A DNA stretch of 64,000 bases from the NCBI RefSeq assembly GCF_013167455.1, contig NZ_CP038328.1; one strand, 5' to 3'. Position numbers: made by a program. This stretch comes from Escherichia coli O157:H7. GTDB taxonomy: Bacteria; Pseudomonadota; Gammaproteobacteria; Enterobacterales; Enterobacteriaceae. Shown piece after piece: positions 33,001 to 36,000 of this stretch. Numbering within the stretch: position 1 is the first letter of the stretch; the number at the start of each line of letters is the position of its first letter.

Positions 33001-36000
33001 ACAAAGCTCCCTATTTTAATTTGAACTCCAGACTTAAATAGCTGTAACAAACATCCCCCATACGTGACAACAAAAAACCGGAGCCGGACTCCGGTTTTTG
33101 TGAAGCTGTCGGCTATTTCATCCCGCCAATATTTTCCCACGTCCCGTCAGCACGCAGGATTTGCAGCGGTCTTACCACACACTGTATCTGCTTTTTATCC
33201 GCATCCAGTATCACCACCTGCGTGATTACCCTGTCCTGCTCCGGGATAATACCATTCTCATCTGACTCCAGGATGTCTGCCGGCCCCAGTCGCAGCTGTG
33301 CTGTAAGTAACTCCCCGTGTTCACGGTCATCATGCTTTCCGCAACCACACAGACGCTGCATAAGTTTTTTTAGTATGTTCATGTCATTCTCCTGTTCTGC
33401 CTGTATCACTGCCCACTTCATCCAGCCCCTTAACATCCTGCCACGGCCCGTCACCAAACCTGACCTGCAAATGCTGAAAAAAACCCTGAACCCGTGTGGC
33501 ATCTTTGGGGTCAAGAAAGGTCAGTCCGGTGATGAGTGCGCCATCTGTATCCGGGAACCAGCCATGGCTGTTTGTCTCAATAATGTTTCCCGGCCCCAGA
33601 CGGAACCGTATTTGCGTCTCCCCCGGGTCGCCCTTCGGCCCCTGAGGTCCGGTTGCCCCCACCGGGCCAGCCGCACCTGTTTCTCCTTTCGGTCCCTGTG
33701 GGCCTGCCGGGCCTGCCGGGCCTGCCGGACCAGCATCACCTGCCGGCCCCCTTTCACCGGTTGCCCCTGCCGGACCGGTGTCTCCACGCTCTCCTTTATC
33801 TCCCTTCGGCCCCTGAGGACCCGCGGGACCCGGTTCCCCCTTTGGCCCGGGAGGCCCCACCACCGTGGGGATTCGGTTTACGGCCTCTTCCGCCGCTATC
33901 CTGCTTTGTTCCGCTGACTGTGCGCTTTCTGCTGACTCCCGGGCTTTTTCTGTTGCGGTCGTTGCATCCCTGGCTGCATTACCGGCTGCACTTTCTGCCG
34001 TCTTTTTTGACAACTCAGCATCTGCTGCACTTTGTGATGACTCACTGGCTTTTTGAGCGGCCGCAGAGGCCGAGGACGAGGACGCCTCCTCTGACTGCTT
34101 TGCAGCGGCTGCACTTTCTGCCGCCTGCCGGGCTGACTCCGATGCATCCCCTGCTGAAGTGTCAGCATTTGCCGCGCTCTCTTCTGCCTGACTGGCTGAT
34201 ATGCCGGCATTCCTCGCGGACGTCTCCGCCTCTCCGGCATTCTTCTTCGCCTCCTCAGCGTGACGCGCCGCTTCTTCCACCATCAGTTCAAAACGACGCA
34301 GTGCCTCCGGCCGGACGTCATCCTCCGACATGGCACCGAGAAAATCATTCAGCGTCCCCGGTTGAGAATCTTCATACACGGTGATGGTCCCGGCATGTGA
34401 CGGCGGGAACCCTTCCACCAACAGAATAACGCTGTACTGACCGTACTCAACGTCCATGCTGTAACGACCGGCTTCATCCGGATTTTCAGAGGCCACCGTG
34501 TTCACCACCACCGTGGCGCTGTTACGTCTGGCTTTCAGTTGAATGGTGCAGTTCTCTACCGGTTTTCCTGTGCCGTCTTTCAGTACACCTGAAATCTTTA
34601 CTGCCATATTCACCCCACAAAAAAGCCCGCCTGAACCGGCGGGCTGTCATAACACTGTGTTACCTGGCTAATCAGAACTTATAACCGACACCCACGATGA
34701 AACCGTCAGTGCGCCAGTCGCCACTGCCGGAGCCTTCATAAGCAATATCAATGGCCACGGATTCGGTCGGGTTAAACTGCACGCCAGCCCCCCACGCCAG
34801 AGACGTGTTGCTGTGGCGACCGTCATCACTTCCGGTCAGCACATCGTGCGTTTTCCCCTTGTTGTCAGTTACGCGAAGATAATCCCCGGAGAAAGTCGAC
34901 ACACGGCTGTAAGCCACACCCGCCATCGCATACGCGCTGAACCATTCATTCACGCGCACAGACGGCCCCGCCATTACGCTGAACCAGCGGTTACGCACGG
35001 AATCTTCATGCCAGCGGGTATCGCTGTAACGGGTAAGCTGGCGATTCTTGTCTCCTGCATAGCTGAATGACGTCACCAGCCCCAGCGTGTCCGTAAATTC
35101 ATAACGGTATTTCACGTTAATCCCGTTAAGATTATCGCTACCGGGAGCGCTCGTCCGGGCATGAAGATACCCCGCGCTCAGCGTGGCCTGCTGCTCAGAC
35201 GCCCATGCAGGCGCGCCGGATACGGCCAGACAGATGGCTGCGGACAAAATGGCGGCATAAAGTTTACGCATAATTACCTCTCGCTTTTCTGCAATAAAAA
35301 AGGCGCCATTTCTGGCGCCCGTATATGGGTTATAAAATTCAGCTGATACTGATACCTGCTGTGGATTTTTTCATCACCACAACCAGCAGATCGCTGATAC
35401 TGGTTGTTGGTGTCCAGTTATTCGCTCCTGATGAAGATACGGTGAATGTCAGTGTCAGCGTCCCCTGTCCGGCAGGCATATCTATAACTGAGGAAAATAC
35501 GCCCTGAGCATCCGTCGTGGACTGATTAAAAATCTCCTGACCATTGCGGGTCACTCTTAACCGGCAGGTTGAATACCAGTATGACTGTTGGTTATTACTG
35601 TTGAAATTCTCATGCTTACCACCGCGGAATAACACTGGCGGTATCATGACCTGCCGGTCAAACTTCTGATCATCACTGATTCTTACCGTGATGGTGCCAC
35701 TGGCATAAGTGCTCGTGCGGGGGAAAGACTTGCTGACCGTTTTGACAATATCGCCTTCAATCTGGTTGGCTGACAGTTTCCCCTTAATCTGACAGTTCTC
35801 ATTAATCGTGACGTTGTTGAGCGTCCCTGAGTTCGCATTCACACTGCCACTGATATCCGCATTTTTCGCCGTCAGTCGCCCGTCCGGCGTCAGGGAAAAC
35901 GTCGGGGGATTGCCGGACGAGGTGATACTCACCGCAAACAGTCGCTTCAGGAACACGTCGTTCATGAACAGCTGATTCCCCTGCGCCACAAATAACGGCG

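Follow-up and report, generated by a model that had tools for sequence, protein, structure and literature searches.

In phage lambda, the genes J, lom, stf and tfa follow one another in that order. The same order of J, lom, a fibre gene and a small gene is found on the minus strand in a lambdoid prophage of Escherichia coli O157:H7, which is present in the 64,000-nucleotide stretch of DNA analysed here (contig NZ_CP038328.1 of RefSeq assembly GCF_013167455.1; referred to below as the window). The subject of this study is the pair formed by the side tail fibre gene and the open reading frame (ORF) of 89 amino acids (aa) that follows it (33113-34607, minus strand, exactly the interval delimited in a first-pass annotation of the sequence). 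The N-terminal collar of the fibre is homologous to that of lambda Stf, whereas the shaft and the tip are different: the lambda protein has neither collagen nor the C-terminal fibre domain PfC (Pfam PF06820, Phage_fiber_C), and lambda Tfa, a protein of 194 aa, belongs to an unrelated family.

Fibres with this architecture have been described from enterohaemorrhagic E. coli (EHEC) as EPclA (Ghosh et al. 2012, PMC3368898; ECs2717 and ECs2231). They consist of the same PfN, PCoil (116 aa), collagen and PfC domains, a class of 407 aa with 81 residues of collagen is listed among them, and nothing material differs for the fibre. The small downstream gene is unmentioned in that paper, in which the words 'downstream' and 'chaperone' occur 0 times each. 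The gene pair itself is known from Sp5/VT2-Sakai (ORF67-ORF68) and from phi24B (gp61 and the next ORF), which show the same order and the same junction as the window. In Sp5, ORF68 was described as an 89-aa fibre C-terminus domain protein, and the fibre ORF67 as essential and located at the tail end (Mondal et al. 2016, PMC5155283). The PfC tip of the VT2-Sakai fibre is 100% identical to that of the window, and the small gene is 93% identical in the Sp5/phi24B-type phages, but the fibre of Sp5 and phi24B is the longer EPclB, essential and carried by a short-tailed virion, whereas the window encodes an EPclA side fibre of a lambda-like long tail. The 2010 GenBank record of phage phi24B already carries the description 'phage fiber C superfamily; contains a RLGP motif similar to phage side tail fiber', and PHROG 576 is an 89-position family built on the small protein. 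As a sequence feature, then, the locus is ordinary, and it has been both annotated and published.

Fibres and downstream partners are also paired in other phages. In phage Mu, gpS is accompanied by the chaperone gpU/Tfa (PDB 5YVQ, 8JU3); the weak match to these structures is to the fibre chain and not to the chaperone, and the profile search gave no sequence link. For the 'transient chaperone caps' of Alteromonas phages (PMC10579305) and for gp24-gp25 of Pam3 (PMC9608196), the tip and its downstream partner travel together across unrelated tail types, and the partner is largely absent from mature virions, in both respects as here. The chaperones of those cassettes are not homologous to the tip that they serve, whereas the partner in the window is a paralogue of the tip.

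PfC-tipped collagen fibres occur on most Shiga-toxin (Stx) phages and on many effector-carrying EHEC prophages and, being so widespread, bear on host finding and on the spread of toxin genes by these phages. The evidence on the role of the small paralogue consists of one deletion, scored for plaques and lysogens on K-12. To this we add the occurrence of the cassette on three fibre scaffolds, the orthology pattern of the small-protein (S) and fibre (F) types of PfC, the placement of the small gene in the slot of Tfa and the finding of trace peptides in phi24B virions. The interest that remains is that of a fibre partner paralogous to the tip it accompanies, which is a testable idea. Should the partner prove to be an assembly or capping factor specific to the tip, engineering or expression of these fibres would require it, and a new type of fibre partner would be added to those known.

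Homology between the fibre tip and the small protein

The domain at the tip of the fibre has an old paralogue in the small gene, which has an initiation site of its own, is expressed together with the fibre, is under selection and is passed on with PfC-tipped fibres as a cassette. Residues 336-397 of the fibre align with residues 29-88 of the small protein at 34% identity and 61% positives (BLASTP, E 3e-11 for the pair), a similarity far beyond chance. Both proteins match the 64-position model PF06820 over its whole length (positions 1-64), with 120.9 bits for the fibre and 123.2 bits for the small protein at a gathering cutoff of 25 bits, and in the shared motif RLGPGNIIE of the fibre corresponds to RLGPADILE of the small protein. 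The first-pass annotation had noticed this resemblance from the sequence; it was right about the similarity but overestimated its extent, which is about 62-64 aa and not about 80 aa.

The small gene (33113-33382, minus strand; PF06820 E 5.3e-36, PHROG 576 at full length) is named 'phage tail fiber C-terminal domain-containing protein' in RefSeq. Its product is laid out as an N-terminal helix (aa 3-12), a disordered linker (aa 14-24) and the S-type PfC (aa 28-89, encoded by 33116-33301). AlphaFold2, supplied with an alignment of 19 S and F sequences, predicted a small beta domain at residues 30-89 (pLDDT 86-92). The best viral predicted-structure matches of this PfC model are the tail fibre proteins of several phages, with weak scores that all point in the same direction, and PfC is thus probably a fibre-type module. 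Sequence and profile searches of the PDB returned no solved PfC structure, only spurious coiled-coil matches.

Several other readings of the small ORF were considered and rejected. Some GenBank records and gene callers use a longer start, giving 102-133 aa; an AGGAG lies 6 nt before the ATG at 33382, and in the Salmonella orthologue (see below) the frame is closed by a stop codon two codons ahead of the ATG. The L-x-G-C at aa 11-14 is not a lipoprotein signal, as the leader is only 13 aa long and polar (MNILKKLMQRLCG), and C14Y and C14R are common alleles. A metal-binding motif C12-x-C14...H17...H22 is contradicted by the common C14Y/R and H22N/D alleles and by the absence of the histidines from the Salmonella and Citrobacter forms.

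A conserved cassette on three fibre scaffolds

The PfC family is very narrow. A joint PfC profile found only 88 hits among 1.84 billion representative proteins, nearly all of them E. coli fragments, and in a word-indexed search the small protein turned up in E. coli, E. albertii and Citrobacter rodentium alone. When one genome for each of 100,044 species was scanned, the only finds were E. albertii and two contaminant or fragment contigs. A small gene copy of 93% identity on a 725-bp contig of Xanthomonas pisi DSM 18956 (NZ_JPLE01000138.1) almost certainly stems from E. coli DNA contaminating the assembly. Of 50,697 phage records, 296 contain an S-type PfC and likewise 296 an F-type PfC, with an almost equal breakdown over organisms; the carriers include long-tailed lambdoid Stx phages as well as short-tailed Stx2 phages such as 933W, VT2-Sakai and phi24B. 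The sole distant relative with a full domain is a 565-aa metagenomic fibre (P0149; positions 3505-5202 of a Logan contig from SRR17035117), in which four tandem PfC-like units are followed by collagen repeats. These units are full-length, about 80 aa each and 25-31% identical to the small protein, and their tandem arrangement indicates that PfC-like modules can stack along the axis of a fibre.

The most informative relative from the representative search is a 79-aa S-type protein of Salmonella enterica subsp. salamae. The fibre upstream of it has 212 aa, lacks both collagen and the Stf collar, and carries an F-like PfC at its end. The small gene overlaps the fibre gene by 14 nt; its ATG is preceded by an AGGAGG and has an in-frame stop immediately upstream. 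The small gene is followed by an equivalent terminator hairpin and then by NleG genes. Between E. coli and Salmonella salamae the S-type domains are 60% and the F-type domains 40% identical, while every S-F pair is 30-35% identical. Since S is closer to S and F to F than either is to the other, the duplication predates the split of the lineages and both copies were kept, which bears out the earlier suggestion that the small gene arose by duplication of a homologous PfC domain. The pair thus occurs on three fibre scaffolds, namely EPclA of long-tailed lambdoid phages, EPclB of short-tailed Stx2 phages and the collagen-free 212-aa fibre of Salmonella salamae.

The Salmonella salamae prophage, which adjoins lepA, encodes Dit, sheath-initiator and baseplate-wedge proteins, and the same backbone is present in Citrobacter amalonaticus. 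The N-terminal two thirds of the Citrobacter fibre are 78% identical to the Salmonella fibre, but its tip is Gp53-like and the next gene encodes a tail fibre assembly protein (PHROG 188, E 1.5e-13). As the two prophages differ in both the tip and the next gene, tip and downstream partner were exchanged together, and the shared backbone puts the small PfC protein in the Tfa slot. Like Tfa, the small gene lies directly downstream of the fibre and is exchanged together with the tip. Judged from these comparisons, the fibre and the small gene are an ancient, conserved cassette. In a prophage remnant of Citrobacter rodentium, a 161-aa fibre stub (weak PfN and PfC), a 78-aa small gene with an internal 4-aa deletion and NleG follow each other (L094:3494-4237), and the pair persists here even in decay.

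Mondal et al. (PMC5155283) suggested ORF68 to be 'an intragenomic reservoir sequence' for fibre variation, i.e. a spare tip cassette that is recombined onto the fibre to change its specificity. Two natural rearrangements are in line with this suggestion. One is an in-frame deletion (L083:1-291) by which collagen is joined directly to an S-type PfC (P0063) at the 11-nt microhomology GGGGCCGGCAG, which is also present in the window; the contig begins inside the collagen repeats, and only that part of the gene is visible. The other is a tandem duplication at the junction in an E. coli prophage variant (L085:1382-3246), where a fibre of 437 aa is followed by a 92-aa chimera (P0132: the N-terminus of the small protein with the C-terminal half of an F-type PfC) and then by a normal 89-aa small gene; this locus also has a second, partial lom copy. 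However, fibres ending in an S-type PfC form a single cluster of 4 sequences, whereas stand-alone copies number in the thousands, and no such fibre occurs among the 1.84 billion representatives, which also leaves little room for the alternative tip domain that the first-pass annotation had envisaged. The longest DNA word that the fibre and the small gene have in common is 11 nt, too low a similarity for homologous exchange, and the absence of inverted repeats of 14 nt or longer from 32900-34750 (0 found) leaves no segment to invert. An invertible tip cassette of the Mu/P1 type (S-U/S'-U') was rejected on the same ground: tip variation in Mu proceeds through an invertible segment, of which there is none in the window cassette, and its neighbours are lom and NleG effector genes, with no site-specific invertase gene beside it. 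Moreover, a silent copy would require neither translation nor a Shine-Dalgarno sequence, ATG and N-terminal leader that are conserved in E. coli and Salmonella. The reservoir idea is weakened by these observations, and we consider it distinctly unlikely.

The coupling junction

The fibre gene and the small gene meet at a tight junction (33380-33393, minus strand). The fibre ends with ...GGA GAA TGA, the stop codon occupying 33386-33384, and after 1 nt the ATG of the small gene follows at 33382-33380; the Shine-Dalgarno sequence AGGAG (33393-33389) lies within the last codons of the fibre, 6 nt before this ATG. The 1-nt gap from stop to start is the same in all 66 loci compared, which comprise the window, two reference loci and contigs from IMG/VR, and in every one of them the upstream fibre has an F-type PfC and the downstream gene an S-type PfC. 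The IMG/VR scan produced only loci of 97-100% identity and so served for junction and polymorphism counts, being a poor measure of diversity. The small gene, with a Shine-Dalgarno sequence and an ATG of its own, is translationally coupled to the fibre, as shown by the sequence, its conservation and the peptides found in phage preparations.

An intrinsic terminator follows the small gene (33068-33099, minus strand), with a CCGGAG-UCC-GGCUCCGG stem flanked by an A-run and a U-run; its RNA folds at -22.6 kcal/mol (z -2.75). A further terminator-like hairpin between lom and the fibre gene (34624-34645, minus strand) is the upstream boundary of the unit. The tight junction, the terminator after the small gene and the hairpin before the fibre together mark off the two genes as a compact unit with which the late operon ends.

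The same junction invites a different explanation, in which some ribosomes shift +1 at or near the fibre stop and produce a longer fibre with two tandem PfC domains. In E. coli as in Salmonella, the small gene does lie in the +1 frame of the fibre, in the window the S frame is open for 44 codons upstream, the stop is a UGA-C with AGGAG before it, and the four tandem units of P0149 make stacked modules structurally possible. In the supplementary proteome of a preprint on phi24B (bioRxiv 10.64898/2026.04.10.717836), the search database included the hypothetical fusions 'Fusion_6159_FS1/FS2' and the row is labelled 'Spike or just gp59?', on which the main text is silent. The sequence ACA GGA GAA UGA C AUG is not, however, a +1 frameshift site of the prfB type. 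It offers no slippery codon, and by the rules of codon-anticodon pairing GAA would re-pair poorly with AAU; AGGAG overlaps the P-site codon, whereas the prfB type needs this element 3 nt upstream of it, and its distance from the ATG is suited to initiation there. Nor is the geometry conserved, given the 1-nt gap in E. coli versus the 14-nt overlap in Salmonella, where the S frame has a stop two codons before the ATG. Mondal et al. saw no frameshift signal (PMC5155283), and no junction peptide is present in the portion of the phi24B proteome file examined. At least one S-specific peptide-spectrum match (PSM) comes from the low-molecular-weight gel slice EA1829, in which the fusion row has 25 and the fibre row 24, no more than a weak hint against a fusion. 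A recoded fusion is the most improbable of the explanations considered here.

Selection and expression

As crude counts on related, non-independent prophage copies, the polymorphisms of the small gene give a pN/pS of 0.19 for its PfC part (18 synonymous and 11 non-synonymous changes in 51 distinct alleles), against 0.45 for the PfC of the fibre. Between E. coli and Salmonella, dN/dS of the small gene is 0.24 at a dS of about 1.2. These crude estimates agree that the small gene is maintained as a protein, apparently at least as strongly as the fibre tip.

One may nevertheless ask whether the small gene is a functionless relic, an old duplicate that hitch-hikes beside an essential fibre gene. 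Sp5 can do without it, the databases contain many singletons with frameshifts or truncations, degraded copies occur in the Citrobacter rodentium prophage remnants, and the N-terminal extension is variable. A relic is hard to reconcile, however, with a pN/pS in the PfC part below that of the fibre's own tip, or with the 60% identity between the E. coli and Salmonella proteins at the divergence given above, with start site, Shine-Dalgarno sequence and terminator all kept. The intact 89-aa forms fall into large clusters of 300-1,400 members each, and the protein has been detected. On balance, we regard a mere relic as very unlikely.

The detection comes from the purified phi24B virions of the 2026 preprint cited above, whose supplementary proteome contains two peptides unique to the small protein, VITQVVILDADKK and ADGTWENIGGMK. 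Each is represented by 3 PSMs against 2267 for the fibre gp61, which corresponds to about 2% on a molar basis after length normalisation. The two unique peptides at such a level indicate that the small protein is made but is not a stoichiometric component of the virion.

A protein that is produced late together with the fibre, has the fold of its distal domain, is conserved at the amino acid level, occurs in the virion in traces only and can be dispensed with in laboratory infection could also be a soluble mimic of the tip. It would then act as a free PfC knob on the host surface, for example by occupying the receptor on lysing cells and debris, and so modulate adsorption or superinfection. 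Yet the S and F types, at 30-35% identity, have different conserved surfaces and would not be expected to bind a common ligand. A signal peptide is absent from the small protein, its L-x-G-C following a polar leader of 13 aa and C14Y alleles being common; furthermore, no receptor is known for PfC, and the phi24B authors argue that the tip is not a BamA binder. A role as soluble mimic therefore seems unlikely.

A possible role at the fibre tip

The reading that we tentatively prefer is that the small protein is a co-translated, dispensable accessory factor for PfC-tipped fibres, acting in assembly or capping by a mechanism that we infer. The trimeric side fibre would dock on the tail tip by its Stf-type collar, with the coiled coil and the 27-triplet collagen helix as its shaft, and the small beta-rich PfC knob at the far end would trimerise and nucleate the collagen helix. 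The 89-aa protein, which is translated from its own Shine-Dalgarno sequence and ATG in coupling to termination of the fibre, would fold as a PfC behind a short N-terminal helix, probably trimerising like the PfC of the fibre. It may then act on the fibre tip by contact between PfC and PfC as a dispensable accessory factor, either an assembly aid or a transient cap, which raises the yield, the stability or the receptor reach of PfC-tipped fibres. Such a role would be that of the Tfa-type proteins found at the same gene position elsewhere, the small protein mostly not being kept in the finished virion.

It is possible, though more doubtful, that the small protein represents a new kind of partner: an assembly factor or transient cap that is paralogous to the tip it serves, works by homotypic PfC-PfC templating or stacking and has replaced the Tfa-type chaperones.

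Several observations weigh against an accessory role at the tip. When produced recombinantly in E. coli, EPclA forms trimers in the absence of the small protein (PMC3368898), and ORF68 is among the non-essential late genes of Sp5, its deletion still giving plaques and lysogens on K-12 (PMC5155283). Sequence similarity to Tfa families was not found, the only matches of the small protein being PF06820 and PHROG 576/13758, with no NCBIfam model. A linked F-F-F-S-S-S hexamer was modelled by AlphaFold2 with a mean pLDDT of 27.5 and a pTM of 0.18, values too low to speak for or against an interface. In the first 27 codons of the small gene pN/pS is 0.93 (3 synonymous and 11 non-synonymous changes, only 14 variants), and the selection estimates in general are of the crude kind mentioned above. 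Since EPclA trimerises alone, the Sp5 deletion is viable and Tfa similarity is absent, an obligate chaperone is unlikely. The chaperone role put forward as a possibility in the first-pass annotation fits the Tfa slot, the translational coupling and the purifying selection, and may be that of a helper that the fibre can do without.

Domain organisation of the fibre

The side tail fibre gene (33384-34607, minus strand) has the EPclA architecture and encodes 407 aa from the ATG at 34607, as in RefSeq, where it is named 'prophage tail fiber N-terminal domain-containing protein'; an alternative GTG start two codons upstream (34613) would give 409 aa. The protein matches PF08400, PF01391 and PF06820 in Pfam and the tail fiber families PHROG 366/3279, and its domains follow the EPclA order of PfN, PCoil, a single collagen domain and PfC. 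It matches neither PF03406 (Phage_fiber_2) nor any Tfa family, and a distal part of the Stf type was not found.

The PfN or Stf collar domain (aa 1-133; 34209-34607, minus strand), which docks the fibre on the tail tip, is recognised by PF08400 (E 7.6e-69, aa 3-135 of the 409-aa form), and aa 3-95 match the collar domain of Ur-lambda Stf (PDB 9E7M/9MGH, E 3.5e-52). It is followed by an Ala/Ser/Glu-rich region of low complexity (33861-34208, minus strand), the PCoil, which by its composition is a putative trimeric coiled coil: the 115 residues at aa 136-250 include 37 Ala, 23 Ser and 15 Glu, and internal 21-nt direct repeats are present in the DNA. The collagen triple-helix region (aa 251-331; 33615-33857, minus strand; PF01391) has 27 unbroken Gly-X-Y triplets and contains a family of 23-nt direct repeats. 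In these three elements, a lambda Stf-like N-terminus, a low-complexity region and a long run of triplets, the fibre is as the first-pass annotation had depicted it. The F-type PfC, the distal globular trimerisation knob, occupies aa 333-396 (33420-33611, minus strand; PF06820 E 2.9e-35, aa 335-398 of the 409-aa form). The remaining 11 aa (33387-33419, minus strand) form a C-terminal tail, which the alignments show in F-type tips but not in the small protein.

EPclA has been characterised as a dumbbell-shaped trimer with a genuine collagen triple helix, in which PCoil is a trimerisation region, and the isolated PfC is trimeric and re-nucleates the collagen helix after melting (PMC3368898). By analogy with this protein, which is more than 90% identical, a trimer with a collagen triple helix and a PfC knob would be expected for the fibre of the window.

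Genomic context

The unit of fibre and small gene lies in a lambdoid prophage inserted in ydfJ, where it forms the distal end of the late (tail) operon. The region 33000-34700 is 100% identical to several complete O157:H7 chromosomes, and a truncated ydfJ adjoins the prophage in NZ_CP066753. Along the minus strand, J (35339-38869) and lom (34672-35271) are followed by the fibre gene, the 89-aa ORF, the terminator and three NleG-family effector genes. A second terminator-like hairpin (35301-35320, minus strand) lies on the other side of lom; with hairpins on both flanks, lom would fit an autonomously regulated insert within the late operon.

The three tandem genes of NleG-family type III effectors (32424-32999, 31722-32351 and 30999-31640, minus strand; T3SS_NleG in Pfam, 'DUF1076' in RefSeq) lie directly 3' of the fibre unit in a stretch of 40% G+C. 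Effectors of the NleG or NleL/SopA-like type are also found 3' of the small gene in Salmonella salamae, in Citrobacter rodentium and at other E. coli loci; this recurrence suggests that the terminator of the small gene marks a recurrent insertion point for effector cargo. A DinI-like gene (30595-30837, plus strand) separates the effector genes from the MFS transporter gene ydfJ (29180-30463, minus strand), which is cut at the prophage boundary and is annotated in RefSeq as a pseudogene with the N-terminus missing.

Finally, two long antisense ORFs are present on the plus strand opposite the sequence coding for collagen and coiled coil (33222-33917, 231 aa, and 33653-34384, 243 aa). They are most likely artefacts of repetitive G+C-rich codons; a similar antisense 'hypothetical protein' (vb_24B_37c) is found in the GenBank record of phi24B.

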